From: Alphaproteobacteria bacterium MarineAlpha12_Bin1
Lineage (GTDB): Bacteria; Pseudomonadota; Alphaproteobacteria; UBA6615
Length of the DNA stretch: 64,000 nucleotides
NCBI GenBank assembly: GCA_002937505.1
Contig: PTJY01000004.1
Coordinates: forward strand, 125,186-189,185
Direction of reading: 5' to 3'
Shown here: piece by piece, positions 1 to 42,199 of the stretch
Position numbering within the stretch: position 1 is the stretch's first letter
Layout: every line of letters starts with the position of its first letter
Position numbers and translations under genes: made by a program
Notes under the pieces: model-generated
Seen by the model: only the letters and a program-made list of their open reading frames with translations
Told to the model about the DNA's origin: nothing
Databases searched by the model: none

Positions 1-37
1 AATAAATGTAAGATTACTGCTTTTGTAGTTATAGAAT

Positions 38-7006: not shown

Positions 7007-7062
7007 TCTGGGCTTATTTAACCGTTAATTTGGTTTTAACTATTGTCTTAGGGAGACTACTT

Positions 7063-7833
7063 ATGTCAGATACCGACTTGTCAAATAGGCCTGTGGCATT
7101 AGTTACTGGCGCTTCATATGGCTTAGGGGCTGAAATTGCTATTACTTTGGCTCGTGATGGATTTGATGTGGCAGTTACTGAGCTTAATGCGAATGACCTT
7201 GACCAAACTGTAGCTGAAATTGAAATGGAAGAAGGCGCGAAAGCTGCTGCATTTGATCTCGATTTAAGAGATATTGAAAATCTAAAAGAAACGGTAAAAG
7301 GTGCAATAGGTGCTATGGGCAAAATAGATGTCTTGGTCAATAATGCTGGATTGCTTATTGCCAAGCCTGCTCTTGAGGTCACTCTTGATGATTGGGATCA
7401 AGTAATGTCCATAAATGTTAAGGGTTGTTACTTTATGTCTCAGTACGTGGCAAGACACCTGATAGAGGAGGGAAGGTCTGGAAGTATAATAAACATAGCT
7501 TCAACTTTTACTGTTATAGGAACACCCAATGTATCCCCTTATGGGGTGTCAAAGGCAGCCGTTGGGGGAATCACAAGACATTTAGCTGTTGAGTGGGCTC
7601 AATATGGTATACGTGTAAACGCTGTTGCTCCAGGTACAGTTGAGACCAAATTAAGGGCAAAAATTTTAGCTGCCGATCCAGAGCGTAGGGCAACCAATAT
7701 GGCAAAAATTCCCATGGGGCGATTTGGTACTCCAGAGGACATGGCTGGTGCCGTTTCGTATTTAGCTAGTCCTGCTTCATCTTATGTCAACGGTCACGTG
7801 CTTACTGTTGATGGTGGGCTTACTATTTCATAA
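7063..7833 (+). CDS. SDR family NAD(P)-dependent oxidoreductase
   Basis: TGASYGLG cofactor motif, NNAG, catalytic S...YxxxK (YGVSK). GGGAG RBS before ATG 7063. Confidence 0.8.
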   Translation: MSDTDLSNRPVALVTGASYGLGAEIAITLARDGFDVAVTELNANDLDQTVAEIEMEEGAKAAAFDLDLRDIENLKETVKGAIGAMGKIDVLVNNAGLLIAKPALEVTLDDWDQVMSINVKGCYFMSQYVARHLIEEGRSGSIINIASTFTVIGTPNVSPYGVSKAAVGGITRHLAVEWAQYGIRVNAVAPGTVETKLRAKILAADPERRATNMAKIPMGRFGTPEDMAGAVSYLASPASSYVNGHVLTVDGGLTIS

Positions 7834-7888
7834 AACTTTTATGATTGTTATATGATATTATCAATGCTTCATGTCAGGGAGTAGAAAA

Positions 7889-10204
7889 ATGCAATTTGGT
7901 ATAGGACAACCAGTAAAGAGAAAAGAAGACCCTAAATTTCTACGGGGATTAGGTCGGTATGTGTCAGACATGACATTACCGAGGCAGAGCTACGCTGTTT
8001 TTGTTTACTCTAATTATGCGCATGCTGATATCAAATCTATAGACACTTCTAAAGCAATAAACTCGCCAGGAGTAATTTCTATTTTAACTGGACTTGAGTA
8101 TGTTGAGGATGAAATGGGGCCTACTGGAGGGGTTATGCCTGAGGACATGGGGGGACCCCCAGGATACCGTACTTCTCATATGCCGCTAGCTGTTGAAAGA
8201 GTCAGATTTGTCGGTGAAAGAGTTGCTGTCATAATAGCTGAAACTGAAGAGCAAGCGCGCGATGCTGTTGATCTTATTGAAATAGACTACTCTGAATTAC
8301 CAGCTGTGATTATGGCCAGTGATGCGATAAGAGACAATGCTCCTCAAGTTTATAAGGAGGCTGATAGCAATGTAAGCTTTACACTTCAATCAGGAAGCTC
8401 TGATGACGTGGAAGCCGCTTTTGCACAAGCTGATCACATAACGAAACTATCTCTTCATAATAACCGTATTGATGCTGTCACAATGGAACCTAGAGGCTGT
8501 TTGGGAGACTTTGATGCTAGCAATGGTCGTCTTAATTTTTATACAAGCACTCAAAACGTTCATGGAATAAGGCAAGGTCTTGCAAGCCAAAATCTAAATG
8601 TTCCTGAAAGCATGATACGAGTGATTGCTGGTGATGTAGGAGGTGGTTTTGGAATGAAAGGTCATGTGTATCCCGAGGAGGCAGTTGTTGCGTGGGCCTG
8701 TAAGAGGCTAGGAAGGCCAGTTAAATGGATAGCAACACGTAGTGAATCTCTATTGGGAAACGGTCATGGACGTGATCAATCAGTTGATGCTGAGCTAGCG
8801 CTTAATAAAAATGGAAAGTTTATTGGGTTACGATGGAGAGGTCTCCACAATGTGGGAGCCTATATTGAAGGCGCTGGGGCCATTCCTCCTGTCTTTGCAG
8901 TTAAGTTAGCACCTACTGTATATGATATTCCGGCTGTTGATGTGATTAATAAGGCTGTTTTTACTAATACTTCCCCGACGGTGCCATATAGAGGAGCCGG
9001 AAGACCTGAAGCAGTTTATATTATGGAAAGATTAATTGATCTGGCTGCCCAAGAAACTGAGATGGATAGAGCTGAAATAAGAAAAATTAACTTTATAAAA
9101 CCAGATGACATGCCACACAGCACTATTACTGGTTGGACATATGATACAGGTGAATATTCCGTAGCTTTGGAAAAGTGTAGAGAGCTTTCTGATTGGGATG
9201 GATACGAAGATCGAGTGATGATCTCTAAAGAGAGGGGTCTGTATAGAGGTCGTGGTATTGTCTATTACGTAGATAATACAGGAATATTTAATGAAAGAAT
9301 GGAAATACGATTTGATCCTAGTGGTACGATTACCATTGTGTCTGGTGTTTTATCTCATGGACAAGGCCACGAAACTACTTTTGCTCAAATGGTATCCGAG
9401 TGGTTAAATGTTCCGTTTGAAAATATTCGTCTTACTCAGGCAGATACTGATGAAGTTCCTATAGGCCGAGGTACCTATGCCTCTCGTTCAATGATGGTTG
9501 GTGGTAGCGCTCTTCAGGCCGCAGCAAATGATGTAATAGAGAAGGGTAAAAAGTTTGCTGCACATTTTATGGAAGCCAATGTTACAGACATTGAGTTTTC
9601 TGAAGGAAATTTCATCATAACTGGAACTGACAAACAGATGCCTCTCACTGAAATCGCAAAGATGTCCTTTATGCCGGTGCACTTACCAAGTGAAGAACTT
9701 GGAGTGGGTCTTCAGGGAGTGGGAGCTTTTTCTGCCGATGTGCCAAGTTTTCCAAATGGTTGTCATATAGCTGAAGTGGAAGTTGATTCAGAAACCGGTG
9801 AAGTAATAATTGATAGATATAGTGTTGTTGACGATATTGGTACGGTCATTAACCCATTACTGGCTAGCGCACAAATTCACGGAGGAGTTGTCCAAGGGGT
9901 AGGACAGGCTTTAATGGAAGATCTTTATTATGATCGACAGAATGGACAGTTACTTTCAGGGTCGTTTATGGATTATGGAATGCCTCGAGCTGATATGATG
10001 CCAGATATAAAAGTAGAGTTTAATCCCGTGCGGAGTAAATCGAACCCTATTGGGGCTAAAGGTGTTGGAGAAGGGGGTACTGTGGCTAGTACTCCTACGG
10101 TTGTGAACGCAATACTTGATGCAATTAAGGCTTTAGGGGTCAACAAGATAGATACACCTGTAACTCCTCGAAGAATTTGGGAAGCGATTAACTCAGCTAG
10201 TTAA
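7889..10204 (+). CDS. Xanthine dehydrogenase family molybdopterin-binding large subunit (form II CoxL-like, AYRGAGR-type)
   Basis: ~770 aa. N-terminal IGQPVKRKEDPKFLRGLGRYVSD. Active-site loop VPYRGAGRPE (form II CODH-like / aldehyde-oxidoreductase large-subunit signature). C-terminal GAKGVGEGG. GGGAG RBS 7 nt before ATG 7889. Confidence 0.85.
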   Translation: MQFGIGQPVKRKEDPKFLRGLGRYVSDMTLPRQSYAVFVYSNYAHADIKSIDTSKAINSPGVISILTGLEYVEDEMGPTGGVMPEDMGGPPGYRTSHMPLAVERVRFVGERVAVIIAETEEQARDAVDLIEIDYSELPAVIMASDAIRDNAPQVYKEADSNVSFTLQSGSSDDVEAAFAQADHITKLSLHNNRIDAVTMEPRGCLGDFDASNGRLNFYTSTQNVHGIRQGLASQNLNVPESMIRVIAGDVGGGFGMKGHVYPEEAVVAWACKRLGRPVKWIATRSESLLGNGHGRDQSVDAELALNKNGKFIGLRWRGLHNVGAYIEGAGAIPPVFAVKLAPTVYDIPAVDVINKAVFTNTSPTVPYRGAGRPEAVYIMERLIDLAAQETEMDRAEIRKINFIKPDDMPHSTITGWTYDTGEYSVALEKCRELSDWDGYEDRVMISKERGLYRGRGIVYYVDNTGIFNERMEIRFDPSGTITIVSGVLSHGQGHETTFAQMVSEWLNVPFENIRLTQADTDEVPIGRGTYASRSMMVGGSALQAAANDVIEKGKKFAAHFMEANVTDIEFSEGNFIITGTDKQMPLTEIAKMSFMPVHLPSEELGVGLQGVGAFSADVPSFPNGCHIAEVEVDSETGEVIIDRYSVVDDIGTVINPLLASAQIHGGVVQGVGQALMEDLYYDRQNGQLLSGSFMDYGMPRADMMPDIKVEFNPVRSKSNPIGAKGVGEGGTVASTPTVVNAILDAIKALGVNKIDTPVTPRRIWEAINSAS

Positions 10205-11073
10205 TAAAACACAACTGTTCTATCTTTGTGTGTGATAACACGATGTTGAATGTGGTAACGTACAGCTCTTGCTAAAACTAAACTTTCCAAATCCCTTCCC
10301 ACACGCTCTAATTCTTGTGGGTGCTGTGCATGAGTTACTCTTGTGGTTTCTTGATCGATAATCGGACCCTCATCAAGGTTAGGTGTAACGTAGTGGGCTG
10401 TTGCCCCAATAAGTTTCACTCCTCTAATGTATGCCTGATCGTAGGGCTTTGCCCCTTTGAACCCGGGTAAGAAGGAATGATGAATGTTTATAATTCGACC
10501 TTTGAGAATTTCACAAGTTTCCGGGGTTAATATCTGCATATATCTTGCTAGCACCGTTAATTCAGCGTCCGTTTGTTCTATAATTTTTAATACCTCTGTT
10601 TCTTGTTGTGTTTTTGTTTGAGGTGTAATCGGTAAATAGTGATAGGGTATGTCATAGAAAACAGCACGTGGTTTCTGGTCTAGGTGATTAGAAATGATAC
10701 CTACGACATCAATTTCTAAAGCCCCAATACTAACTCTATAGAGAAGATCATTTAAGCAATGTCCTGGCTTAGAAACCATTATTAATACACGTGGCTTGTG
10801 ACATTGATTATACAGCTTCCAGGCCATAGCAAACCTTTGTGCAATTGGGTTAAATGAACTTTTGATGTTTGTTTCAGAAGGAGTGGTTTCTCCTGCTCCA
10901 AATACAGTGCGCATAAAAAATTGCCCTGATATTTCGTCATCAAACTGTGCCGATTCTAAAATATTACAACCCTGCTGGGCTAGAAAACTGGCTACTTCTG
11001 CAACGATTCCCATTTGGTCGGGACAAGATAGATTTAGTATATAACGTCTATCAAACTCTTGACGTTTTGGCAT
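10201..11073 (-). CDS. purU: Formyltetrahydrofolate deformylase
   Basis: N-terminal ACT domain (LNLSCPDQMGIVAEVASFLAQQGCNI) plus formyltransferase domain with the HHSFLP motif. GAGG RBS before ATG 11073. Confidence 0.8.
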   Translation of the reverse strand: MPKRQEFDRRYILNLSCPDQMGIVAEVASFLAQQGCNILESAQFDDEISGQFFMRTVFGAGETTPSETNIKSSFNPIAQRFAMAWKLYNQCHKPRVLIMVSKPGHCLNDLLYRVSIGALEIDVVGIISNHLDQKPRAVFYDIPYHYLPITPQTKTQQETEVLKIIEQTDAELTVLARYMQILTPETCEILKGRIINIHHSFLPGFKGAKPYDQAYIRGVKLIGATAHYVTPNLDEGPIIDQETTRVTHAQHPQELERVGRDLESLVLARAVRYHIQHRVITHKDRTVVFY

Positions 11074-11202
11074 GATTCCTCTCAAAAGATTTTGTTTTGA
11101 TATATTTTCAATATGTATATTTAAGTATGTTTGAATATAATTTATATTCTTAAATTAAAATTTTTTTGACGTATAATTTGAATTTATAAAAGGATAAAGG
11201 AC

Positions 11203-12411
11203 ATGGCTAAACCTCAGTTGCGACAGGAGCAAGGGTGGATATTTGATAATTTTCTTATGCTTTCAGAAAACGAAGATATTCTTCATCCAGGTATTATGGG
11301 AACGCGTCTTGTTAGGGGGTTTATGCTTGAAGATTTGCACGCAGTCTACAAAAAGGTTACAGGAAGAAGATCTTTTCCGAAGGCCTGGTTTAAACGGGCA
11401 AGTGCATTAGAGTCTGCTGCCAAAGCAGCTGAAGACAGTGGGCAGCTTATTACCGCTAGAAAATTATATCATAGAGCTTCTCTGTGTTTTGGTCGCGCTC
11501 AACACCTTATACCCGTTCATGGAAATGAGGAAATGAATAAGGCGTATAAATTATTATATAAATGTTATGACAAAGTAATTGAGCTATCTAATGGGTGTAT
11601 GATCAAAAATTCTCTAGAATTTTTGCCAGGTGAATATGTTCATTGTGTTTTTCATAAGGCTCCTGGTGAAGGTCCTAAGCCAACAATACTTATTATTCCA
11701 GGTATGGATGCTATTAAGGAAGACGTTGTTAATCCTTTTTCAAATGATTACCTCGATCGTGGTATAAATGTTTGTGCGTTAGATGGCCCAGGTCAGGGAG
11801 AATGTAATTATAACGCTGTTTGGCTAACCCAAGATAACTATCAGATAGCTGCTTCAAGAGTTATTGATATGCTTGTTACACGTGAAGACGTAGACGCTGA
11901 TAAAATTGGCGTTATGGGAATGAGCATGGGATCCCGATGGGGAGTGCAAGTGGGTGCACATGATGAACGTGTTAAAGCTGTATGTGGTCAGATGGCAAAT
12001 GTTGGGTCGTTTGATATAATTTTTGAACAAGCGCAGCCGAACTTTAAGCGTATTTTTATGTATATGACGGGTTACACCGACGAGGATGAGTTTGATGAGT
12101 TTATGCTCAAGATGGATTACTTGCCCGATGTTGCGAAGAGGCTTCGCGTGCCACACTTACTTGTTGCTGGTGATATGGATGAATTATGTACGCCAGCGGA
12201 TATTAAAGTCTTCAGGGAAAGTTTGGCAGGGCCGTCAGAATTATGGCTCTATGAGGGTGTTTTTCATCCTATGGGAGAAGTAGCGGGAGAAATATACCCA
12301 GCAATGTCTGATTGGCTTTTAAGCACTTTAAATAGCGGCAGGCCTAATGACTATGAAAAAACAGTTTATGTTGAAGAAGGCAGAAACTTAGGTGACTACG
12401 ATCATGGCTAA
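11203..12411 (+). CDS. Alpha/beta hydrolase fold protein (dienelactone hydrolase / S9-peptidase-like)
   Basis: Nucleophile elbow GMSMGS and C-terminal His region (VFHPMGE). N-terminal ~150 aa cap. AAAGGA RBS. Confidence 0.55.
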   Translation: MAKPQLRQEQGWIFDNFLMLSENEDILHPGIMGTRLVRGFMLEDLHAVYKKVTGRRSFPKAWFKRASALESAAKAAEDSGQLITARKLYHRASLCFGRAQHLIPVHGNEEMNKAYKLLYKCYDKVIELSNGCMIKNSLEFLPGEYVHCVFHKAPGEGPKPTILIIPGMDAIKEDVVNPFSNDYLDRGINVCALDGPGQGECNYNAVWLTQDNYQIAASRVIDMLVTREDVDADKIGVMGMSMGSRWGVQVGAHDERVKAVCGQMANVGSFDIIFEQAQPNFKRIFMYMTGYTDEDEFDEFMLKMDYLPDVAKRLRVPHLLVAGDMDELCTPADIKVFRESLAGPSELWLYEGVFHPMGEVAGEIYPAMSDWLLSTLNSGRPNDYEKTVYVEEGRNLGDYDHG

Positions 12412-17050: not shown

Positions 17051-18184
17051 ATGAAAATATTAGTTGTTGGAGGAGGTCCATCAGGTCTTTATTTCTCTTA
17101 TCTTATAAAGAGGTCGCACCCAGGTATAGAAGTAAAGGTTGTTGAACAGAACCCTAGTAATGCCACTTTTGGATTTGGAGTAGTATTTTCTGACAAAGCG
17201 CTAGAATTTTTACACAGTGATGATGAACAAACTTATAATTATTTAATGCCTCATATGAGATATTGGCCAGACTTAAAGATTGTTCATAAAGATGAACATA
17301 TGGCAATCGATGGTAATGGTTTTGCTGCAATTGGACGCTTGCAATTACTAAACTTACTTCAGTCACTTTGTTTGCAGACTGGTGTTTTGTTCGACTTTAA
17401 TACAGAGTTTAAAGACATAAAAAACGATTATAACTATGATTATATTGTAGCTGCCGATGGAGCAAACTCTTCCATTAGAAAAAATTACAAAGAGGAGTTT
17501 AGGTCATCAGAAACAATACTAAAAAACCCATTTATTTGGTTTGGTACAACGAAGTTATTTGATTGTTTGAGCCTTACTTTTAGATTAAATAATGACGGTG
17601 TTTTTTGTGCTCACCATTATCCCTATAATTCTCATATGAGTACATTTATAGTTGAGACAGACCCAAAAACATATGAAAAAGCAGGTTTTTCAGCTAAAGA
17701 TGAACGTTCTATTAAAGCCTATTGTGAAGAAGTATTTGCTATTGATTTGGACGGGCATGAGTTATTAACGAATAAATCAGTTTGGCGTTGGTTCCCTCAG
17801 GTGTGGAATGAGCGGTGGAGTCATGAAAATATCGTTCTAATCGGAGACGCTTTGCACACAGCTCATTTTTCAATTGGATCCGGAACACGTCTTGCAATGG
17901 AGGATGCTATTTGTCTATTTGAGGCGATAAACGAACATCTAAGTGACAAAACAGCTGCCTTGAATCAGTTTGAAGTTAAACGTCGTCCAAAGTTAGAAAA
18001 ACTAATAGATGCTTCAATTGCAAGCGCTCTGTGGTATGAGAAAATGGATGAGCTGGTTAGAAGTCTTGAGCCTTATGAATTTGCAAAAAGCTACATGATA
18101 AGAACCGGCAGGGTAAGCGATGAGAAATTAAAATCAATAGCTCCAAATTTTATGAAGAGGTATTCGTATTATCATGCTAGCTAG
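17051..18184 (+). CDS. Class A FAD-dependent monooxygenase (aromatic hydroxylase-like)
   Basis: GxGxxG FAD motif (VVGGGPSGL), DG motif (AADGANSSIRK), GD motif (GDALHTAHFSIGSGTRLAMEDA). GAAGGA RBS. Confidence 0.7.
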   Translation: MKILVVGGGPSGLYFSYLIKRSHPGIEVKVVEQNPSNATFGFGVVFSDKALEFLHSDDEQTYNYLMPHMRYWPDLKIVHKDEHMAIDGNGFAAIGRLQLLNLLQSLCLQTGVLFDFNTEFKDIKNDYNYDYIVAADGANSSIRKNYKEEFRSSETILKNPFIWFGTTKLFDCLSLTFRLNNDGVFCAHHYPYNSHMSTFIVETDPKTYEKAGFSAKDERSIKAYCEEVFAIDLDGHELLTNKSVWRWFPQVWNERWSHENIVLIGDALHTAHFSIGSGTRLAMEDAICLFEAINEHLSDKTAALNQFEVKRRPKLEKLIDASIASALWYEKMDELVRSLEPYEFAKSYMIRTGRVSDEKLKSIAPNFMKRYSYYHAS

Positions 18185-18195
18185 GAAACTTAATT

Positions 18196-19821
18196 ATGGA
18201 AGTTAATGATATAACAGATCACGTTCCAAGGTTTTTGAAAATATCTAAAGACATAAACTTTGATCTTCCTGAAAAGTATAACGCAAGTGAAATACTTTTC
18301 GCTAATCTGGAAAAACGACCAAATAAAATCGCTGTTTACTCTGATAATGGTAATGTCACCTATAGGGAGCTTTGTGAAACTTCAAATAAAGCAGGAAATG
18401 CTCTGAATCATATGCAGTTGAGACCATTTTCACGAATATTAATGATTTTAGATGATACAGCAATTTATCCTTCGGCAATATTTGGAGCAATGAGAGCAGG
18501 ATTTGTACCAGTTTTAATTAATACTTTGTCTCCTCCAGAGTTGGTGAATTATTATCTTAAGGATAGCGAAGCCACTGTAGTTATTATTAGCGAAAGCTTC
18601 TCCCATCTCATAAGTGAAGAGACAGTAGTTGGTACAAATCTAGAAACTATAATAGTTGATGGAAACATAGAAACAAATATATCCCAGATCACTTCAATTA
18701 CCTGGAAGGACTGGATTAGAAGTCACTCATCGTCTATGCCGGCGTCTAATACAAACAAAGATGACATGGCTTTTTGGATGTATAGTTCTGGTAGCACAGG
18801 GCGACCTAAAGGAATCGTTCATTTACATCATGACATGGCCTATACTAATGAATCTTACGCTAAAGAAGTGCTTAGTTTAACGGACGATGACATCTGTTAT
18901 TCACCGCCGAAAATATTCTTTGCTTATGGCTTTGGTAATTCTATAACGTTTCCATTTTCTGTGGGGGCTAGTGTTATATTAAGTGCTGGAAGGCCTCAGC
19001 CAGAAATAGTTTTTGATCATGTGGAAAGGTATAAACCTACTGTTTTCTTTGGTTTACCAACGCTTTATAATGCACTGTTAAGTAATAAAGTTAAGACTAG
19101 TTCATCTTTTAACAGTGTTAGATTATGTATTTCAGCCGCGGAAACTCTTTCAAAGGATTTATTCTCTGCTTGGAATTCTAGGTTTGATTTGGACATAATC
19201 GAAGGTTTAGGCTCTACGGAAGTGTTACACATCTATATATCGAATAAATTAGAAGATTTTAGAGTTGGTTCAGCGGGTAAGCCAGTTAAGGGTTATGAAG
19301 TTGAGTTAAGAAATGTTGAGGGTAAGGTTGTCGAAGGGGATGAACCAGGTGTTTTATGGGTTAGAGGCGATTCAAATGCACCTTGTTATTGGAACAAGCT
19401 GGATAAAACGCTCGAAACTATGAAAGAAGGATGGATTTATACTGGTGACAGATTTGAGGTAGATGATGATGGGTTTTATTATTTTCGAGGTCGTGCAGAT
19501 GACCTAATTAAGATCAGCGGACAATGGGTGTATCCACTTGAAATTGAGCTTTGCTTAAAAAATCATCCCTCTGTAAAGGAGTGTGTTGTTTTAGGTTTGA
19601 CCCTCGCTGATGAACGAATGACAACAAAAGCATTTGTTGTTCTCTCAGATGATTGCGAGGAAAACCAAAACATGACGGAAGAATTGAAAAATTATGCTCA
19701 GAAAAACTTGTTACCACATAAATACGCAAGAGAGATAAGTTATATGAAATCGCTTCCAAAAACTGGATCGGGTAAGATCGATAGACAAAAGCTTAAAGAG
19801 GATAGCAAACTACAGAGGTAA
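18196..19821 (+). CDS. AMP-binding aryl/acyl-CoA ligase (benzoate-CoA ligase family-like)
   Basis: AMP-binding box YSSGSTGRPKG, hinge YTGDRF, C-terminal GKIDR. Length 541 aa. Confidence 0.8.
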   Translation: MEVNDITDHVPRFLKISKDINFDLPEKYNASEILFANLEKRPNKIAVYSDNGNVTYRELCETSNKAGNALNHMQLRPFSRILMILDDTAIYPSAIFGAMRAGFVPVLINTLSPPELVNYYLKDSEATVVIISESFSHLISEETVVGTNLETIIVDGNIETNISQITSITWKDWIRSHSSSMPASNTNKDDMAFWMYSSGSTGRPKGIVHLHHDMAYTNESYAKEVLSLTDDDICYSPPKIFFAYGFGNSITFPFSVGASVILSAGRPQPEIVFDHVERYKPTVFFGLPTLYNALLSNKVKTSSSFNSVRLCISAAETLSKDLFSAWNSRFDLDIIEGLGSTEVLHIYISNKLEDFRVGSAGKPVKGYEVELRNVEGKVVEGDEPGVLWVRGDSNAPCYWNKLDKTLETMKEGWIYTGDRFEVDDDGFYYFRGRADDLIKISGQWVYPLEIELCLKNHPSVKECVVLGLTLADERMTTKAFVVLSDDCEENQNMTEELKNYAQKNLLPHKYAREISYMKSLPKTGSGKIDRQKLKEDSKLQR

Positions 19822-25895: not shown

Positions 25896-26219
25896 ATGAG
25901 GGGACCACAGGATTATGGCGGATTACCTGCAGGGCTAGTTGACCCTGTAAAGAATGAGCATGAACCCACTCATTGGGAAAGACGTGTTGATGCGATTATG
26001 TTACTTCTTTTTGATCCCAAAAGAAGATTGGCGCGTGTGGATGAATCACGTCGTATGCAGGAAGCCTTAGGAGATGACTATCATAAATATCCTTATTATG
26101 AGCGCTGGCTTCAAGCTATAACATGGTTGCTGCTTGAAAAAGGTGTTTTCACACAAGAAGAGCTTGATAAAAAGAGAGAAGAAGTAAGATCTCGACTAGA
26201 GGCCGAAAGAAATGGATAG
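25896..26219 (+). CDS. Nitrile hydratase beta subunit, N-terminal-domain half (separate gene; ScnB/ToyK-like)
   Basis: 107 aa aligning to the N-domain of NHase beta (HDxGG start region, WE.R..A, DE.R..E.L....Y...YYERW..A). AGGAGA RBS. Stop TAG overlaps the next ATG in ATGGATAG. Confidence 0.8.
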   Translation: MRGPQDYGGLPAGLVDPVKNEHEPTHWERRVDAIMLLLFDPKRRLARVDESRRMQEALGDDYHKYPYYERWLQAITWLLLEKGVFTQEELDKKREEVRSRLEAERNG

Positions 26220-26496
26220 TAAGTTCATCCCGGGAGATAAAGTCCGAGTAATAGAGCGCAGCCAACCTGGGCATGTCAGAACACCTATGTATGTACGTGG
26301 TAAACCGGGAGTGATAGAAAGAATCGTCGGTCCCCAACCTAACCCGGAGACGCTGGCATATGGACAATCCGGCCTCCCCTACAAAATGCTATATAGAGTT
26401 AATTTTTCACAAAAAGTACTTTGGCCAGATTATGAAGGTCAAGACAATGATTCTCTTGAAATAGAGATCTATGAACATTGGTTAGAGCGTATATAA
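26212..26496 (+). CDS. Nitrile hydratase beta subunit, C-terminal-domain half (separate gene; ScnA/ToyL-like)
   Basis: 94 aa aligning to the NHase beta C-domain (F.PGDKVRV..., H.R.P.YVRGK.GVI, LYRV.F...LW). Translationally coupled to the preceding gene (8-nt overlap). Confidence 0.8.
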   Translation: MDSKFIPGDKVRVIERSQPGHVRTPMYVRGKPGVIERIVGPQPNPETLAYGQSGLPYKMLYRVNFSQKVLWPDYEGQDNDSLEIEIYEHWLERI

Positions 26497-26528
26497 TTTA
26501 ATAAATTTACATCATATGAGAGAAAAAA

Positions 26529-27179
26529 ATGAGCGAACATCATCATGATCATCTAAATGCTACTCACACTCACGATGGTAAACCTATTCAGAATGATGAG
26601 CCACCCTCTATTGAAGCAGAATCTCTTGAAACTGCTGTAAGAGAATTGTTAATGGAAAAGGGTGTCATAACTGCTGATGAATTACGTGGTGCTATTGAAG
26701 CGCAGGAACAAAGGAGGCCCGAACTTGGGGCAAAGATTATTGCGCGAGCATGGGTTGATGAGGACTTCAAACAAAAATTATTGAGTCATGGGGATATGGC
26801 TGTTCGTTCTTTTGGTGTCGACATGAAGCCCACTGAGTTATGTGTGGTAGAAAACACAGAAGAGGTACATAATCTGGTTGTTTGTACCTTATGTTCTTGT
26901 TATCCGAGAGCTATTTTGGGCATTCCTCCTGCGTGGTACAAACGACGTGACTATAGGTCCAGAGCGGTACGAGAACCAAGATCAGTTTTATCCGAGTTCG
27001 GTACAATTATTTCGGAAGATAGACAGGTAAGAGTGCACGATAGCAATGCTGATTTGCGTTACTTGGTGCTGCCGATACGTCCTTCTGGTACCGATGATTG
27101 GAGCGAAGAAGATTTGGCTGAGTTGGTCACTAGGGACAGCATGATAGGTGTAGCTGAGGCGATCACACCTGATGGCTAA
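26529..27179 (+). CDS. Nitrile hydratase alpha subunit, cobalt type, with His-rich N-terminal extension
   Basis: Metal-binding VCTLCSCYP claw (Thr = Co-type) followed by PPAWYKRRDYRSRAV and C-terminal SEE..L..LVTRDSMIGV. Near-identical in blocks to remembered Rhodococcus/Pseudonocardia NHase alpha. N-terminus MSEHHHDHLNATHTHDG. Confidence 0.9.
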   Translation: MSEHHHDHLNATHTHDGKPIQNDEPPSIEAESLETAVRELLMEKGVITADELRGAIEAQEQRRPELGAKIIARAWVDEDFKQKLLSHGDMAVRSFGVDMKPTELCVVENTEEVHNLVVCTLCSCYPRAILGIPPAWYKRRDYRSRAVREPRSVLSEFGTIISEDRQVRVHDSNADLRYLVLPIRPSGTDDWSEEDLAELVTRDSMIGVAEAITPDG

Positions 27180-32097: not shown

Positions 32098-32198
32098 ATA
32101 TTTTTTATAGATTTTAGCAACCTCTCATACAAAAATTATTGTTCAAGTATAAACGAAGTAACTCAATAAGTTTTTTATATAAATTTAGGAATAAGACT

Positions 32199-33371
32199 AT
32201 GATTCCAAATCAATTTCCCTCACTAAATTTTGATCTTGGTGAAACAGCAGATATGTTGCGGGACACAGTGAGAAGTTTTTCTGATGACCATATAGCACCG
32301 AGGGCGGATGAAATTGATAGAAGTAATGAGTTCCCTATAGATTTATGGCCCATGATGGGGAGCATAGGACTTCATGGAATTACAGTTGAGGAAGAATATG
32401 GTGGTTCGGGCTTAGGTTATTTAGAACATTGTATAGCCATGGAAGAGGTTAGCAGGGCCTCAGCATCTGTTGGTCTTTCGTATGGAGCACATTCAAACTT
32501 ATGCGTAAATCAGATAAGAAGAAATGGCACTGTTGATCAAAAAAAACGCTACCTACCCAAATTAATTTCTGGTGATCATGTCGGGTCGTTAGCGATGAGC
32601 GAATCTGGAGCTGGCTCTGACGTTGTCGGAATGCGGACAAAAGCAGAAAAAAGAGGAGATTTGTACATTCTTAACGGAAGTAAAATGTGGATCACGAACG
32701 GACCAGTTTCCAATACTTTTGTCATTTATGCAAAGACTGAACCCGACGCAGGTCCTAGAGGAATTACTGCCTTTCTAGTTGAAAGAGAATTTAAAGGTTT
32801 TTCGGTTGCTCAAAAACTTGATAAATTAGGTATGAGAGGTTCTGACACTTGTGAGCTTATATTCGAAGATTGTGAGGTTCCTGAGGAAAATATTCTTGGG
32901 GAGTTGAATAAAGGTGTCAATGTTTTGATGAGTGGTCTTGATTATGAACGTGCAGTCTTAGCAGCTGGCCCGCTTGGTATAATGCAATCCTGTATGGATA
33001 TTGTAGTGCCCTATGTACACGAACGAGAACAATTTGGGCAACCCATAGGCACTTTTCAGTTTATGCAGGGCAAACTTGCAGACATGTACACAACCATGAA
33101 TGCATGCAAGGCATATGTGTATGCAGTAAGTAAAGCATGTGACAGAGGAGAAACAACCCGTAAGGATGCTGCTGGGGCAATTCTTTATGCGTCTGAAAAA
33201 GCTACGTTAATGGCGTTAGATGCTATTCAAGCACTTGGGGGTATGGGTTATGTAAATGAAAGTCCAACAGGACGTCTTTTGCGTGATGCCAAACTTTATG
33301 AAATTGGTGCTGGCACTTCAGAGATTAGACGACTTTTAATCGGTAGAGAATTATTTGAAGAGACAATGTAA
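32199..33371 (+). CDS. Isovaleryl-CoA dehydrogenase-like acyl-CoA dehydrogenase
   Basis: ACAD three-domain fold with catalytic-Glu region ([12 protein letters not shown]). Sits in a cluster with MCC subunits and HMG-CoA lyase. Start at the internal ATG 32199 (MIPNQF...). Confidence 0.75.
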
Positions 33372-33408
33372 GAATAGTTAAAATTATTTAGGGGAGGTTT
33401 TGTGCTGA

Positions 33409-34065
33409 ATGCCTAGTGTTATTATTATTGGAGCAAATAGGGGAATAGGATTAGGTTTTGCTAAACTTTTTTCAAAGTATGATAATTGGAATATTTACGC
33501 GACTACAAGAAATGTCCAAGCTACTGGGGAACTAGGGAATATAAGCGAGAATATATCGATTTATAAGTTGGATGTTGTAAAACCAGTTGATGTTTCAAAT
33601 CTCGCAAAAGAATTTGAAAATAAAAATATTGATCTAATAATTCATAATGCTGGTGTCTATGGTCATAATATGACTCGAGCGGAAGTTATGGAGGTTAATT
33701 CATTAGCTCCATTTAAGGTAATTGACTCATTGATGCCTTCTTTGCTTCGAGGGGATCAAAAAAAAATAGCGATATTAACAAGCCAGATGGGAGCTCGAAA
33801 CGGGGGAAAAACACCAACTGGCGTTTATGGGGCATCAAAAGCAGCTCTTAATGATCAATACCGTATAGTTGAATTAGAGTGGCGTAAAAGAGGGATAAGC
33901 TCTCTCGTTTTTCATCCCGGATGGGTAAAAACTGACATGGGAGGAAGTTCTGCACCGGTAGAAATTAAAGAGAGCGTGATAGGTATGTATAGCGTTCTAG
34001 AAGAACTTTGTCTTGAAAACAGTGGTAGGTTTATGGACTGGAGAGGAATGGAATTGTCCTGGTAA
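33409..34065 (+). CDS. Short SDR family oxidoreductase
   Basis: IIIGANRGIGLG cofactor motif, NAG, Y(GAS)K catalytic pair. GGGGAGG RBS. Confidence 0.65.
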   Translation: MPSVIIIGANRGIGLGFAKLFSKYDNWNIYATTRNVQATGELGNISENISIYKLDVVKPVDVSNLAKEFENKNIDLIIHNAGVYGHNMTRAEVMEVNSLAPFKVIDSLMPSLLRGDQKKIAILTSQMGARNGGKTPTGVYGASKAALNDQYRIVELEWRKRGISSLVFHPGWVKTDMGGSSAPVEIKESVIGMYSVLEELCLENSGRFMDWRGMELSW

Positions 34066-34106
34066 AAGCTATTACCAGGTCTATTATATTCCAGGAGGTA
34101 ATTCGA

Positions 34107-35249
34107 GTGCTAAATCAAGAACAAATGATGATCCGAGACTTAGCTCGTGATTTTTCCCAAAATGAACTTTCCCCTAATGCAGCAAGGTGGGATAGTGAGG
34201 TTATTTTTCCTGAAACCCAAATTAAAATGATGGGTCGGTTAGGTTTATTAGGAGTTCAAGTTTCAGAGAAATGGGGTGGCTCAGGATTAGGAAACACTGA
34301 ACTTGCGCTTGTAATAGAAGAGATTGCTGCTGGGGATGGGGGGTGCTCAACCATTCTTGCTGTACAAAATTCTGTTGTGTGTATGCCAATTGAAATATTT
34401 GGATCAAATGATCAAAAACAAAAATATCTAAAAGACCTGGTAAAAGGTGAGGTTTTAGGGGCTTTCATGTTGACGGAACCTCATGCTGGGTCTGATGCAG
34501 GGGCAATAAAAACTAAAGCTGAAAAGGTGGGAAATAAGTATATTCTCAATGGGTCCAAGTCATTTATAACTACAGGGAGTAGGGCAGGTTTGGCAATAAC
34601 ATTTGCAGTAACCAATCCTTCAAAGAAATCTCGTGGAATCAGCGCTTTTATTGTCCCAACGGACTCTCATGGTTTTACAGTTAATCGTATTGAAAAAAAA
34701 CTTGGGCAACGATCCTCGGAGACGTGTTCCATTACGCTGGATAATGTGGAAATTACTCCAGATTTAATGCTAGGCGAGGAAGGTGAAGGTTACCATATAG
34801 CCTTATCTAACTTAGAAGGTGGTCGTATCGGTGTTGCAGCCCAGTCTGTTGGCATGGCACGTTCTGCTTACAATGAGGCTTTAAAATATGCTATAGAAAG
34901 AGAAAGTTTTGGGCAGAAAATAGCCAATCACCAAGCTATTGCTTTTAAATTAGCTGAAATGAAGACTAAAATTGATGTTGCTCGCCAGATGTATTTACAT
35001 GCAGCTGATCTCCGGGATAGTGGAGTTAAATGCGTAGAAGAGGCATCTATGGCAAAATTATTTGCCTCTGAAATGGCTGAAGAGGTTTGTTCTGATGCCA
35101 TTCAAATTCATGGTGGTTATGGTTATCTTCAGGATTTTCCTGTTGAGAGAATATATAGAGATGTAAGGGTTACACAAATATATGAAGGAACATCTGAAAT
35201 CCAAAAACTAGTTATATCTAGAGAAATTTTATCTAAAAATTATTCATAG
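34107..35249 (+). CDS. Acyl-CoA dehydrogenase (short/branched-chain type)
   Basis: ACAD blocks (GAFMLTEPHAGSDA, catalytic YEGTSEIQK). GTG start 8 nt after a perfect AGGAGG. Confidence 0.8.
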   Translation: MLNQEQMMIRDLARDFSQNELSPNAARWDSEVIFPETQIKMMGRLGLLGVQVSEKWGGSGLGNTELALVIEEIAAGDGGCSTILAVQNSVVCMPIEIFGSNDQKQKYLKDLVKGEVLGAFMLTEPHAGSDAGAIKTKAEKVGNKYILNGSKSFITTGSRAGLAITFAVTNPSKKSRGISAFIVPTDSHGFTVNRIEKKLGQRSSETCSITLDNVEITPDLMLGEEGEGYHIALSNLEGGRIGVAAQSVGMARSAYNEALKYAIERESFGQKIANHQAIAFKLAEMKTKIDVARQMYLHAADLRDSGVKCVEEASMAKLFASEMAEEVCSDAIQIHGGYGYLQDFPVERIYRDVRVTQIYEGTSEIQKLVISREILSKNYS

Positions 35250-35264
35250 TACTGGGGTAATATA

Positions 35265-35870
35265 ATGACTGATACACCACTCGAGTTTTATTTTGATTTT
35301 AATAGTCCCTATGGTTATGTCGGTGCTCATCTGATTGATAATATAGCTGAAAGATATGATCGTAAAACTGACTGGTATCCAATTTCTTTAGGAGTGGCTT
35401 TTAAAATAACTGGAATGAAGCCTATGAGTGAAATTCCATTGAAAGGCGAATATTTTGAAATTGATAGTGCTAGAGTGTGCAGGTATTACGGTGTTGATTA
35501 CCTTAAACCGGATGTTGCACCATTTTCAGCGACTGCAGCATCGAGAGCATTTTATTGGATAAAGGATAAAGATCCTGGCCAAGCTAAAGGCTATGCAATG
35601 GCAATATACACAGCAGCATTAGCAAAAAATGAGGATGTGTCAGCACCTGCTAGTGTTGCTAAAATAGCTGCTGGAGTTGGTATAGATCAAAAAGAACTTC
35701 TTGACGCTCTTCAAAAACCCGACGTTAAACAAAGATTGGTGGATGAAACAGATCGAGCAGTAAAAAAAGGTGTTTTTGGTTCACCATTTGTAATAGCTGA
35801 TGGAGAACCTTTCTTTGGAGTAGACCGTTTTGAGATACTGGATGAATGGTTAGTCACAGAAGGGTTCTAA
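35265..35870 (+). CDS. DsbA-like thioredoxin-fold protein, 2-hydroxychromene-2-carboxylate isomerase family
   Basis: N-terminal FYFDFNSPYGY motif characteristic of HCCA isomerase/DsbA-like GSH-dependent isomerases. ~200 aa. Confidence 0.6.
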   Translation: MTDTPLEFYFDFNSPYGYVGAHLIDNIAERYDRKTDWYPISLGVAFKITGMKPMSEIPLKGEYFEIDSARVCRYYGVDYLKPDVAPFSATAASRAFYWIKDKDPGQAKGYAMAIYTAALAKNEDVSAPASVAKIAAGVGIDQKELLDALQKPDVKQRLVDETDRAVKKGVFGSPFVIADGEPFFGVDRFEILDEWLVTEGF

Positions 35871-36830
35871 GGAATAACTTTCTTCTAAGATTTTATAGAA
35901 CAGTGAAAGATCAATATTTCCACCAGAGAGTATCAATCCTACATCTCTGCCACTGTATTTATGCCTTTCCTTCATAAAAGCTGCGAGTGGTGCAGCTCCA
36001 GCCCCTTCAGCAATATTATGTGTATCAGAAAAATAATATCTAATTGCTGTCTTTATTTCTAACTCGCTAACTTTAACTATATGATCTACAGAATGGTTAA
36101 TTATCCGAACTGCGTCTTTATCAGGAGTTCTAACAGCTAATCCATCAGCGATTGTATCTGAGTTATTTGTCGACACAGCCTTACCTTGTGAGAAGGATAA
36201 CTCATAACAAGGTGCGTTCTCTGCAACCACTCCTACTATTTCTGTGGTCAGATTTAATGCCTCTCTTGCTGCAATACACCCACAGATGCCTGAGCCAAGT
36301 CCTATTGGAACATAAATAACATCTAGGTTTTTGACACTATTAAAAAACTCATAAGCATAAGTTGATACCCCTGTAATAAGCTCTTTACTAAACGAGGGTA
36401 CCAATATTAATTCTCTCTCTTTCGCCAATATAGAAGAATATTCGAATGCCTCCTGAAAATCTGCTCCATATTCTATTAATTCTGCCCCTAAAGCAGTCAT
36501 GCTCATATTTTTTTCTGAAGAATTTCCCTTTGGAACTATAATTGTTGATTTAATACCGTTCACTGAAGCAGCAAAAGCGATAGATTGTCCATGATTACCC
36601 CTAGTAGCAGCAATAACTCCATTGATATTTTTTTCACTATTTGTCAGGTGGGACATGTAAACTAGTCCGCCACGGAGTTTAAAAGCACCTATAGGTGTTT
36701 GGTTTTCGTGTTTAATCCATATATTTGCACCACCTCTTTTGTTCAAAAGAGGCCAATTATAGTGATTTGTAGGCTGCATGTGATCATAAACAGTGTTTGC
36801 TGCTTTCTCTATTTCTGACTTTACTATCAT
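35850..36830 (-). CDS. PLP-dependent serine/threonine dehydratase-family enzyme
   Basis: PLP-lysine motif GAFKLRGG, Gly-rich loop GLGSGICG. 326 aa. 3' end overlaps the convergent gene by 21 nt. Confidence 0.65.
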   Translation of the reverse strand: MIVKSEIEKAANTVYDHMQPTNHYNWPLLNKRGGANIWIKHENQTPIGAFKLRGGLVYMSHLTNSEKNINGVIAATRGNHGQSIAFAASVNGIKSTIIVPKGNSSEKNMSMTALGAELIEYGADFQEAFEYSSILAKERELILVPSFSKELITGVSTYAYEFFNSVKNLDVIYVPIGLGSGICGCIAAREALNLTTEIVGVVAENAPCYELSFSQGKAVSTNNSDTIADGLAVRTPDKDAVRIINHSVDHIVKVSELEIKTAIRYYFSDTHNIAEGAGAAPLAAFMKERHKYSGRDVGLILSGGNIDLSLFYKILEESYSLEPFCD

Positions 36831-36900
36831 TTTCGTGCTAACTTCCTAATCAGAGGTATAAGTAATACAATAGAATGATCTTAATGAGGTACAGTGGCAA

Positions 36901-38508
36901 ATGACTATTATAAAAACATCTGTGGACATTAATTCACAGGAGTATATTCAAAACTACAATAATATGCAGGTTGTGGTAGATGATTTACGAGAAAAGATAT
37001 CAGTTATAGAGAATGGTGGTAGTCAGAGTGCTCGTGAGCGTCATGTGGCTAGAGGTAAACTCTTACCGCGGGACAGAATTACTAATCTATTAGATACAGG
37101 TTCTCCATTCTTGGAATTCTCTCAATTGGCTGGATACGATCTTTATGACGACGATATACCAGCGGGAGGAATTATAACGGGTATAGGACGTGTTTCAGGT
37201 CGTGAATGCTTAATTGTTGTAAATGATGCTACGGTAAAAGGAGGAACGTATTACCCGGTAACAGTCAAAAAACATCTCCGTGCCCAAGAGATAGCAAAAG
37301 AAAATAATATTCCGTGCATTTATCTGGTCGATTCCGGAGGGGCTAATTTGCCACAACAGGCTGGTATTTTTCCTGATAAAGAACATTTCGGTCGTATATT
37401 TTTTAATCAGGCTAATATGTCAGCACAAGCTATTCCGCAAATTGCTGCGGTTATGGGTTCCTGCACAGCCGGGGGTGCTTACGTTCCAGCTATGGCTGAT
37501 GAAAGTATAATCGTTAAAGATCAAGGAACAATATTTTTGGCTGGTCCTCCGTTGGTAAAAGCAGCTATAGGAGAAGAGGTCACTGCCGAGGAACTCGGTG
37601 GATCAAGTGTTCACACTCAAACGAGTGGCTTAATTGATCATCTTGCAGTTGATGACGCACATGCGTTAGCATTGATTAGAAAGATTGTTAGTAATCTTAA
37701 TAAGCTTGAATCAAATTCTCTGACAATAAAAGAGCCTATTGAGCCTCTTTATGACATGAAAGAAATTTATGGAGCAGTCTCTTCAGACAGCCGAAAACTC
37801 TACGATGTGAGAGAGATAATCGCTCGGATAGTGGATGGAAGCAATTTTGATGAGTTTAAAGAGCTTTACGGCGAGACATTAGTTACCGGATTTGCCCACA
37901 TATATGGTTATCCTGTTGGAATCATAGCGAATAATGGCGTTCTATTTTCAGAATCATCTCTTAAAGGTGCACATTTTATTGAATTATGTTGTCAACGAGG
38001 TATACCTCTAGTTTTTTTACAAAATATTTCAGGTTTTATGGTTGGAAAAAAGTATGAGGCTGGCGGCATAGCTAAAGATGGAGCCAAATTAGTAACAGCA
38101 GTATCTTGCGCTAATGTTCCCAAGTTTACTGTTATTATTGGCGGAAGCTTTGGCGCAGGTAACTATGGAATGTGTGGTCGTGCTTATGGACCTAGATTTT
38201 TGTATATGTGGCCAAATGCAAGAATATCGGTTATGGGCGGGGAACAAGCTTCTAACGTTTTGGCAACTATACGTCGGGACCGCATCGAGGCAAGAAATGA
38301 AACATGGACAGAGGAAGAAGAGAGCAACTTTAAGGCCCCAATTCTTGAACAATATGAGAAAGAGGGCCATCCCTATTTTGCGAGTGCTAGACTGTGGGAT
38401 GATGGTATCATCGATCCATCTGAAACAAGGCGTGTTTTAGGTCTTAGTATATCAGCGTCATTAAATTCACCTATTGAGTCAACTCGTTTTGGTATATTTA
38501 GGATGTAA
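36901..38508 (+). CDS. Methylcrotonyl-CoA (or geranyl-CoA) carboxylase, carboxyltransferase beta subunit
   Basis: 535-aa two-domain carboxyltransferase closely resembling MCCase beta / PccB. Confidence 0.85.
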
Positions 38509-38513
38509 AATTG

Positions 38514-39293
38514 ATGAGCAGTAATAAACTAAAATTCGAAATTAGTGATAATGTTGCTAATTTGATTCTCCATCAGCCAGAAAAGCATAATGCTTTTGAT
38601 GACCTTATTATTAAAGATATAAAAGATACGGTTGAAGAAATTAGTAGAAATCCAGAAATACGTGTCTTAATTCTTTCTGGGTCGGGTAAAAGCTTTTCTG
38701 CTGGCGCAGATCTTGATTGGATGAGGCGCATGTCTGAGTTTGATGAAGATGAAAACTTTTCAGATGCACGTTCGTTAGCAGATATGTTGAATACGCTTAA
38801 TTTGTGTCCAAAGCCAACTATAGCGAAAGTGCATGGTCCGGCGATAGGAGGGGGCGTAGGCCTTATTGCTTGCTGCGATATGGCTATAGCAGCCGACACG
38901 GCTACATTTAGCTTCTCTGAATCCCGTCTAGGTTTAACGCCTTCGACAATAGGTCCATATGTAATCAAGTCAATCGGAAGTCGTAACGCGAGAAGATTCT
39001 TTTTGACTGCTGAGAGATTTGATGCTTTTACAGCGTTAGAAATAGGCCTTGTTAATGTGGTTATACCAGCGAATGACCTGGATCAGTATGTATCTGATTT
39101 GTCCAAAACTTTATCGAAGAATAGTCCAAATGCTATGAGTGAATGCAAAAAACTAATTGATTACATAGATGGTCGAAATATAGACGGATCAGTACTTGAA
39201 TTTACAGCACAGCATATTGCACGTGTCCGTAGTTCTAGCGAGGGGAAAGAGGGAATAAATGCATTCCTAGAAAAAAGGAAGCCAGATTGGTGA
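38514..39293 (+). CDS. Enoyl-CoA hydratase family (methylglutaconyl-CoA hydratase-like)
   Basis: Crotonase motifs (FSAGADL, oxyanion hole GPAIGGGVGLIACCDM). Position between the MCC beta and alpha genes as in liu operons. Confidence 0.75.
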   Translation: MSSNKLKFEISDNVANLILHQPEKHNAFDDLIIKDIKDTVEEISRNPEIRVLILSGSGKSFSAGADLDWMRRMSEFDEDENFSDARSLADMLNTLNLCPKPTIAKVHGPAIGGGVGLIACCDMAIAADTATFSFSESRLGLTPSTIGPYVIKSIGSRNARRFFLTAERFDAFTALEIGLVNVVIPANDLDQYVSDLSKTLSKNSPNAMSECKKLIDYIDGRNIDGSVLEFTAQHIARVRSSSEGKEGINAFLEKRKPDW

Positions 39294-39384
39294 TATGAGA
39301 AGTTATTTATTATAATATAAACTCACTATAAAACGTCTTTCAAAGATACTAACAAACTGTTGATAATTTAAAACGAGGTAAAAT

Positions 39385-41355: not shown

Positions 41356-41526
41356 TTGTTTTTGCTGAATAATAGTTAGCAAAAAATGAAAATGCTTCGT
41401 CGACACCCAATTATAGCGATTGGAGACGGGTCTGCCATAAACATTAAGGGTGTAAATTTGTGGGTTAACTTAAAAATTTAAGTTTGAAAATATTTGTCGT
41501 TTTAAATCAATTAAAAAGGCCTGAAG

Positions 41527-42180
41527 ATGAATGATATCCAACAAACTACGGACAGCTCTGATAAATCTATAGATCAAGTTTTAAATGCTATGGCATGTCC
41601 AATTAACACCCGCGTTCCTCCCATTAAACCTGGAAAAGAGTCACCAGAGGTGACTGAGCTTTATAAACTATGCCTGGATATGTATGGAATTGTACCAAAA
41701 TTTATTCAAGTTTTGGCTCACGCACCAGGTGCAGCTAGAAGTTTCCTTGTATTTGATAGAGACATAAAAGTTGCTTCTCATAGAGATGGAGATACAGAGC
41801 GGTCGCGAATGCAGGTGTTGTGTATATTAAAACCCTCACTAGATAATTCATGCCACAATTGTGCTCATCATAATGTAGCACTAGCAAGGCAGTTGGGATT
41901 TAATGAGACACAGCTATCATCAATATCTTCTAACTCTTGGAACCAAAATAATGACTTCACAGAAAAAGAAAAACTTATTCTTGATTGGGCAAATGCAGTA
42001 ACTGATATGTCAGCGCGTGATAAAAATACCCTTTTTACAAAAATGCTAAAGCACTTTTCAAATTCAGAAATAGTAGAATTTACTTATACCACCGCTCTAT
42101 GGAATTGCACTAATCGATTAGCTGAAGCAATGCACATTACGGCTGAATCGAAGGATAAGGGTATAAATTGGGAAGCTTAA
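41527..42180 (+). CDS. Carboxymuconolactone decarboxylase (AhpD-like) family protein
   Basis: CxxCxxHH-type core (SCHNCAHHN) within a ~217-aa all-alpha-sized protein. Confidence 0.55.
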   Translation: MNDIQQTTDSSDKSIDQVLNAMACPINTRVPPIKPGKESPEVTELYKLCLDMYGIVPKFIQVLAHAPGAARSFLVFDRDIKVASHRDGDTERSRMQVLCILKPSLDNSCHNCAHHNVALARQLGFNETQLSSISSNSWNQNNDFTEKEKLILDWANAVTDMSARDKNTLFTKMLKHFSNSEIVEFTYTTALWNCTNRLAEAMHITAESKDKGINWEA

Positions 42181-42199
42181 AGAGATACTGGAGACAAAT

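Follow-up and report, generated by a model that had tools for sequence, protein, structure and literature searches.

Molybdenum hydroxylases of the xanthine dehydrogenase (XDH) and CoxL family work with water-derived oxygen, and electrons leave their catalytic large subunit (L) through the clusters of the small subunit (S) to flavin adenine dinucleotide (FAD) in the medium subunit (M). In this study, we examined an L gene at positions 7889..10204 (plus strand) of a 64,000-nucleotide stretch of DNA from Alphaproteobacteria bacterium MarineAlpha12_Bin1 (contig PTJY01000004.1, positions 125,186 to 189,185), which is referred to as “the window”. The original prediction, made from the letters of the window, had described this gene as an orphan of the form II CoxL type, whose S and M partners might be encoded elsewhere, might be replaced by a different electron acceptor, or might be missing because the gene is a relic. 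Our analysis indicates that L is probably the catalytic subunit of a conventional three-subunit Mo/2x[2Fe-2S]/FAD hydroxylase with split genes, the partners most probably being an M-S gene pair 11.4 kb upstream.

Form II CoxL proteins are reportedly defined by an AYRGAGR active-site loop together with the gene order coxSLM, a definition said to come from King and Weber in 2007. The window L belongs to the same superfamily, has the same domain set, and carries a YRGAGR-type loop without the Cu-binding Cys. However, the motif that the original prediction gave as AYRGAGR reads PYRGAGR in the sequence, so that 6 of the 7 positions agree and Pro replaces the first Ala; the genes are not in the order coxS-coxL-coxM, as the M-S pair is distant, on the other strand, and arranged M then S; and the clade of the window L in our tree is separate from the DAYRGAGRPE clade, a member of which (L149) does have the order S-L-M. 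The form II label thus suits the type of loop, but neither the exact motif, the gene order nor the tree. As to the form I Mo-Cu carbon monoxide dehydrogenases (CODH; CoxL structures 8uem, 1n5w and 1ffu), they include the best PDB match by sequence and have the same fold and cofactor motifs, whereas the window L lacks the (A/S)YRCS(F/L)R loop, scores below the CODH cut-offs and has no cox accessory genes around it.

Among the closest solved relatives is Kdh of Paenarthrobacter nicotinovorans (KdhL/M/S, 7dqx), an L-M-S heterotrimer with molybdopterin cytosine dinucleotide (MCD), two [2Fe-2S] clusters and FAD. KdhL is not an orthologue of the window L, and the nicotine-pathway context of Kdh is missing at the window. 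Nevertheless, in the Kdh structure paper kdhL is treated as one gene fragment and kdhMS as another (PMC8305194), and by analogy Kdh may be taken as a precedent for an L gene that is not contiguous with M-S. The best curated family for all three window genome proteins is the archaeal glyceraldehyde dehydrogenase/oxidoreductase (NF041018-20; the Sulfolobus enzyme 4zoh is among the top PDB matches), but the scores of L (650 bits, alpha subunit model NF041018), M (249 bits) and S (186 bits) are all below the respective cut-offs of 790, 350 and 290, and this match appears to mark only the general region of the superfamily. A split arrangement is also seen in an uncharacterised cluster on plasmid pAt1D1609a of the cultured strain A. 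tumefaciens 1D1609, whose L is 48% identical to the window L and in which S-M-CoxG is divergent from a regulator, a tripartite ATP-independent periplasmic (TRAP) transporter and L. There, however, L is ~4 kb from S in one obvious cluster, as compared to 11-42 kb in the window clade, and orthology with this cluster was rejected, its S and M being 43% and 30% identical to those of the window genome. Literature searches for orphan or stand-alone coxL returned nothing directly on solitary L genes.

A CoxM-CoxS pair beyond the window edge

The contig carrying the window was recovered from several assemblies by exact-sequence lookup of the window's first protein. Two of the recovered sequences, L085 (a 264-kb contig) and L086 (GCA_002717545.1, PBDZ01000001.1), overlap the window by 10,724 bp without a single difference and extend ~10 kb further left. 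In this extension, 3.5-4.9 kb outside the left window edge (positions 1..37, no strand assigned), are two genes on the minus strand: one for a CoxM-like protein of 276 amino acids (aa) at window positions -4354..-3524 (L085 5609-6439), with Pfam domains FAD_binding_5 and CO_deh_flav_C; and one for a CoxS-like protein of 159 aa at -4865..-4386 (L085 5098-5577), with domains Fer2 and Fer2_2. S carries all 8 cluster cysteines, and M carries the FAD motifs GGQSL and TIGGS. The two genes are 31 bp apart and flanked by a cupin gene and a glutathione S-transferase (GST) gene; TRAP transporter genes adjoin the pair, and no L gene is present beside it in the L085/L086 extension. From the M start to the L start the distance is 11,413 bp, with M-S on the strand opposite to L, and the NCBI accessions of L (PPR13141.1) and S (PPR13125.1) are 16 proteins apart. 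Companion genes for the 2x[2Fe-2S] and FAD subunits, as expected of a member of this family, are thus present in the genome, and M-S are candidate partners of L.

Within the 84 kb of this genome that were covered, L, M and S are each present exactly once. The 10 kb past the right window edge contain no L, M or S, and CoxS or CoxM genes were not found anywhere in the 64-kb window, for which all sizeable open reading frames (ORFs) were annotated, including the precomputed annotation of 51-64 kb. Likewise, a six-frame scan of the window for CoxS cluster motifs gave no match, and neither did CoxS and CoxM hidden Markov models built from verified examples when run against all window ORFs. The original claim that there is no S or M gene in the surrounding 10 kb is therefore literally true, but by a margin of only ~1.4 kb, and the window itself shows just 7.9 kb upstream of L. 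Of the options offered at that time, partners encoded elsewhere is the one supported by this L-less CoxM-CoxS pair. Co-oriented S and M genes immediately outside the window had been named as the finding that would speak against an orphan L; the genes are indeed just outside, but they are on the opposite strand and do not form a single operon with L.

If the M-S pair serves L, L would bind MCD and oxidise or hydroxylate its substrate, with oxygen taken from water and Glu728 acting as the general base, while the bicistronic M-S pair would supply S and M in trans. Electrons would then run from Mo in L via the two [2Fe-2S] clusters of S to the FAD of M, a path taken from the family. This is consistent with the route Mo to [2Fe-2S] to FAD in Kdh (PMC8305194) and with the relay through two [2Fe-2S] clusters in characterised XDH-family members (PMC4548258). 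We infer that these particular L, M and S proteins most probably assemble with each other.

An L gene with no S or M next to it had been presented as unusual, a premise not borne out in this family. Scanning reference genomes yielded 80 L loci at 41-80% identity (S and M neighbours were called by homology, with examples confirmed by Pfam); CoxS or CoxM homologues were near L in just 11 of 85 loci, and ~80% of the 91 sampled L relatives have no S or M within ~10 kb. In a neighbour-joining tree, the window L clusters with 16 other loci (62-91% identity, with the loop [VIA]PYRGAGRPE in most), and no S or M was found in the flanks (mostly ~10 kb on each side) of the 17 loci of this orthologue clade or of L092. 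Most relatives at 43-54% identity are likewise solitary. However, members clustered with S and M are interspersed among them, namely L038 (L-CoxG-S-M), L040 (L-SDR-NMT1-S-M, SDR being a short-chain dehydrogenase/reductase), L042, L061, L068, L073 and L020, and because of these the L family is taken to be ancestrally three-subunit. Tandem L paralogues were also observed, with three L, one S and one M in L020 and two L each, without S or M in the flanks, in L044, L054, L075 and L083; this suggests that, in some Alpha- and Betaproteobacteria, several L paralogues draw on the same S and M.

The M-S pair shows the reciprocal pattern. In a search for M homologues, together with 80 metagenome loci, every M at ≥57% identity (57-100%) has S next to it and no L in the available sequence, and seven of these orphan loci (including L091, L175 and L176) have ~8-10 kb on both sides. 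In contrast, every M at ≤52% identity with more than ~1 kb of downstream sequence is in an M-S-L operon. None of the M-S orthologues had a second L within 10 kb. The layout, with L apart from the M-S pair and M-S without an L, is a descriptive grouping and corresponds to no curated family. L and M-S are co-located on one chromosomal stretch in three genomes: they are 11.4 kb apart in the window genome and 42 kb apart on a single scaffold in a 64-70% relative; and in an 89-91% relative the distance is ~16 kb, as inferred by joining L175 and L001 via common genes, the longest contig common to L and M of this population being 321,979 bp. In both cases with readable strands, L and M-S are transcribed divergently. 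As L and M-S are reciprocal orphan clades, the simplest reading is that the nearby M-S pair supplies the partners in trans.

All four orphan M-S loci whose surroundings were compared (L085 1-9809, L091, L175 and L176) contain an island of genes for a TRAP transporter (DctPQM), a PuuE-like polysaccharide deacetylase, a 2-hydroxyacid dehydrogenase and a GST, and most of them also contain Cupin_2, a histidinol-dehydrogenase-like gene, PF04199 cyclases and a nitroreductase. From its gene content, this island resembles a pathway for the catabolism of an imported organic acid, one that would need a Mo hydroxylase but is without an L of its own. As for the substrate class of the enzyme, the neighbouring TRAP transporter, CoA-transferase, hydratase and aryl-CoA ligase allow speculation about an organic acid, an aldehyde or a heteroaromatic compound.

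The “orphan” status of L is an effect of the window edge together with the family habit of scattered genes, and a gene missing from a fixed window should not be taken to be missing from the genome. L is an uncharacterised addition to a known kind of enzyme and not a new system. It is of modest interest for the evolution of multi-subunit molybdoenzymes that an L clade without S and M and an M-S clade without L travel together at 11-42 kb, and the L and M-S loci provide a concrete test case for assembly in trans.

The L gene and its product

L is in an open frame of 7871..10204 (plus strand), with two in-frame ATG codons, and public gene calls are split between a 777-aa product starting at 7871 (some assemblies) and a 771-aa product starting at 7889 (NCBI records). 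We favour ATG 7889, as an AGGGAG sequence at 7876-7881 is located 7 nt before it and the N-terminus read from it, MQFGIGQ, is conserved in an alignment of 19 orthologues. The presence of an L-type gene with the loop VPYRGAGRPE at 7889-10204, as originally claimed, was confirmed by the ORF, the translation and Pfam. Three Pfam domains cover the full length of the protein, Ald_Xan_dh_C (residues 20-138), MoCoBD_1 (156-402) and MoCoBD_2 (429-705), with E values of 1.6e-26 to 9.2e-80 and all three scores above the gathering thresholds, as expected of an XDH-family large subunit that binds MCD and is catalytic. Furthermore, L can be aligned over its entire length with L subunits of solved structure, best with M. 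smegmatis CoxL (8uem, E 1.6e-143) and also with KdhL (7dqx, E 3.9e-124), CutL (1ffu), the Sulfolobus enzyme (4zoh) and QorL (1t3q).

The residues expected of a catalytic subunit are in place. The active-site loop VPYRGAGRPE (residues 365-374) is encoded at 8981..9010 (plus strand, as are the following), and Y367-E374 are invariant in 20 orthologues. The cofactor-binding motif GGGFG (G251-G255 within DVGGGFGMK, 8639..8653) is invariant in the orthologues and aligned with the same motif in the CoxL structures. Gln222 (in STQN, codon at 8552..8554), also invariant, corresponds in the alignments to 8uem and 1ffu to the Gln that contacts the Mo=O group in the active site of CoxL and XDH. Glu728 (in GVGEGG, codon at 10070..10072), invariant as well, aligns with the catalytic general-base Glu of the family (Glu763 of CODH, Glu1261 of bovine XDH and Glu748 of KdhL). 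The equivalent Glu acts as the general base in Kdh and XDH (PMC8305194). With Gln222, Glu728 and GGGFG all kept across the 20 orthologues, L has the catalytic residues of the XDH family.

In terms of function, no curated NCBIfam equivalog family matched L. The CODH models TIGR02416 and NF040766 gave 519 bits (cut-off 991) and 558 bits (cut-off 950), even though public records label L as “carbon monoxide dehydrogenase”.

L is intact and under strong selection. When compared to the 91% orthologue, the nonsynonymous and synonymous divergences (dN and dS) are 0.046 and 0.78, giving a dN/dS of ~0.06. Across the 20 orthologues (65-91% identity), 285 of the 771 positions do not vary, among them Gln222, Glu728, GGGFG and the whole YRGAGRPE. 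Full-length homologues number in the thousands, the 65-91% orthologues come from marine and soil Alphaproteobacteria, and identical copies of L are found on many environmental contigs. Tara Oceans data are among the sources of the L and M-S sequences. The hammerhead contains no catalytic residues and belongs to the N-terminal domain, which in Kdh embraces the Fe-S subunit. In the orthologue alignment, 37% of its columns are invariant, as compared to 40-45% for the cofactor domains, and this conservation on a par with the cofactor domains lends soft support to the notion that L may have an S partner.

Alternative partners and activities

Several observations weigh against the pairing of L with the M-S pair 11.4 kb upstream. 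The nearest canonical relatives of this M-S pair are M-S-L operons whose QYRAVGHP-loop L proteins share 30-36% identity with the window L, and the S and M found beside closer L relatives are more distant from those of the window genome (S 42-53%, M 25-40%). As the nearest canonical relatives differ, L and M-S do not seem to have been inherited jointly. The opposite strands and ~15 intervening genes mean that L and M-S are not co-transcribed, and scans for consensus promoters and terminators gave counts equal to the shuffled expectation and were uninformative. The inventory of L, M and S covers 84 kb, leaving room for a further L or S/M set elsewhere in the genome. Finally, the common best NCBIfam family of L, M and S (glyceraldehyde dehydrogenase alpha/beta/gamma) was considered as evidence for pairing, but is weakened by the fact that the QYRAVGHP-type L gives the same best match.

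These differences in ancestry suggest that: L and M-S may have been combined secondarily; or M-S may be shared among several L. It is quite possible, although we do not expect it, that the partners act in trans without forming a dedicated trio, either because M-S is a generic module shared by L paralogues or because L uses another S/M set. Such an arrangement is favoured by the relatives in which L paralogues outnumber S/M sets (L020; L044, L054, L075 and L083), by xYRGAGRPE-type L genes that adjoin complete M-S-L' operons in L060 and L108, and by the different nearest canonical relatives of L and M-S, but a single L, M and S within 84 kb, two orphan clades that share one chromosomal stretch in three genomes and the lack of a second L within 10 kb of any M-S orthologue speak against it. 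In a mix-and-match history of this kind, which we consider tentatively, M-S would have descended from QYRAVGHP-type M-S-L operons and been adopted by an L of another lineage, or be shared among L subunits. A more radical alternative, that L works without Fe-S and FAD subunits and hands electrons straight from Mo to O2 or some unrelated acceptor (for example, an oxidoreductase encoded nearby) while M-S serves something else, seems very unlikely. Although L never shares an operon with S or M in the whole orthologue clade, and an SDR gene is located 55 bp upstream of L in the window lineage, an intact L-less M-S pair is 11.4 kb away, the non-catalytic hammerhead is as conserved as the catalytic domains, and the SDR neighbour is not conserved, with no other neighbour recurring across the clade. 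To our knowledge, no characterised XDH-family enzyme is without two [2Fe-2S] clusters, and a stand-alone L, if true, would be the first without an Fe-S relay. The different electron acceptor of the original prediction is thus not needed.

Even less probable is that L is the large subunit of a form II CODH that oxidises CO. The public labels, the best PDB match (CoxL 8uem) and a loop resembling AYRGAGR all favour this activity, but the loop has no Cys, so that the Cu-binding Cys of AYRCSFR is missing; the scores of 519-558 bits are far from the CODH cut-offs of 950-991; and neither an operon of the coxSLM or coxMSL type nor genes for CoxG or maturation were seen. CO oxidation by form II proteins is itself regarded as unresolved, and the motif is also present in other Mo hydroxylases (PMC13240472). 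For the annotation of marine Alphaproteobacteria, an L of this kind, which fails form I and loosely fits form II, should not be counted as CO-oxidation potential. That L is a decaying relic of a former operon, the remaining option of the original prediction, is the least credible explanation: the absence of adjacent partner genes is the sole point for it, and it is rejected because of the intact frame, a dN/dS of ~0.06, the thousands of full-length homologues, the identical environmental copies and the 285 of 771 invariant positions, catalytic and cofactor residues included.

Neighbouring genes

The immediate flanks of L are those originally described, an SDR gene and a convergent purU gene. 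The SDR-family oxidoreductase gene (7030..7833, plus strand, Pfam adh_short) is co-oriented with L across a 55-bp gap. Its orthologue occurs only in close relatives, 6.8 kb from L in L036 and with two genes between it and L in L092. A conserved partnership between SDR and L was considered and rejected, since the SDRs beside distant L genes are only ~35% identical; judging from these comparisons, the SDR is a lineage-specific neighbour rather than a conserved partner. The purU gene (formyltetrahydrofolate deformylase, 10201..11085, minus strand) has a stop codon overlapping that of L and scores 336 bits with NCBIfam PurU (cut-off 286). It is near L in 5 of the 17 orthologue-clade loci and also in L092 and L093, at positions 17931-18821 in L002, 12360-13343 in L036 and 12319-13191 in L092. 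Two arrangements are seen: convergent and adjacent to L; or in the same direction 5.6 kb downstream. The linkage is probably residual synteny, although it could also reflect a tie to one-carbon metabolism. More generally, when neighbours were clustered across 85 loci, no universal neighbour emerged that could be a conserved substitute partner, and the biggest cluster consisted of antisense ORFs inside L.

Other candidates within the window were also examined. A 774-aa ORF at 60875-63199, considered as a second L, turned out to be ClpA, and ORFs of CoxS and CoxM size at 44-48.6 kb encode TctABC, an HbpS-like protein and a GFO/IDH/MocA-family oxidoreductase.

The QYRAVGHP-type M-S-L operons form a large set of their own (L103-L170, for example L108 9869-13708, L136 950-4670 and L144 10001-13680). 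Their loop differs from both the form I AYRCSFR and the form II AYRGAGR motifs, and their L has no NCBIfam equivalog, the best match being glyceraldehyde dehydrogenase alpha with 527 bits (cut-off 790).

Genes for a CoA-transferase III and an enoyl-CoA hydratase are located upstream of L. Downstream, at 17051-19821, a 377-aa FAD monooxygenase resembling the N-terminal half of the bifunctional salicylyl-CoA 5-hydroxylase (382 bits, below the cut-off) precedes a member of the benzoate-CoA ligase family (506 bits, exceeding the cut-off of 375), and these genes point to a putative aryl-CoA catabolic module 7-10 kb downstream of L. A larger cluster at 32139-43108 is that of leucine/isovalerate catabolism, with two acyl-CoA dehydrogenases, a carboxyltransferase (36901-38508), an enoyl-CoA hydratase, a biotin carboxylase with a biotin carrier domain (39385-41355), a 217-aa ORF without a Pfam match (41527-42180) and an HMG-CoA-lyase-like protein (42200-43108).

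Two further loci show differences in how genes are divided into ORFs. After purU, an FrsA-like alpha/beta hydrolase is encoded by one intact 402-aa ORF in the window (11203-12411), whereas its counterpart in the 91% relative (L001 13314-14522) is called as three genes of 132, 101 and 165 aa, which may be due to a pseudogene or to an assembly error. At 25896-27179, the nitrile hydratase beta subunit is encoded by two ORFs that overlap by 8 bp, NHase_beta_N (25896-26219) and NHase_beta_C (26212-26496), followed by the alpha subunit at 26529-27179, and the split of beta is either natural or the result of a frameshift.

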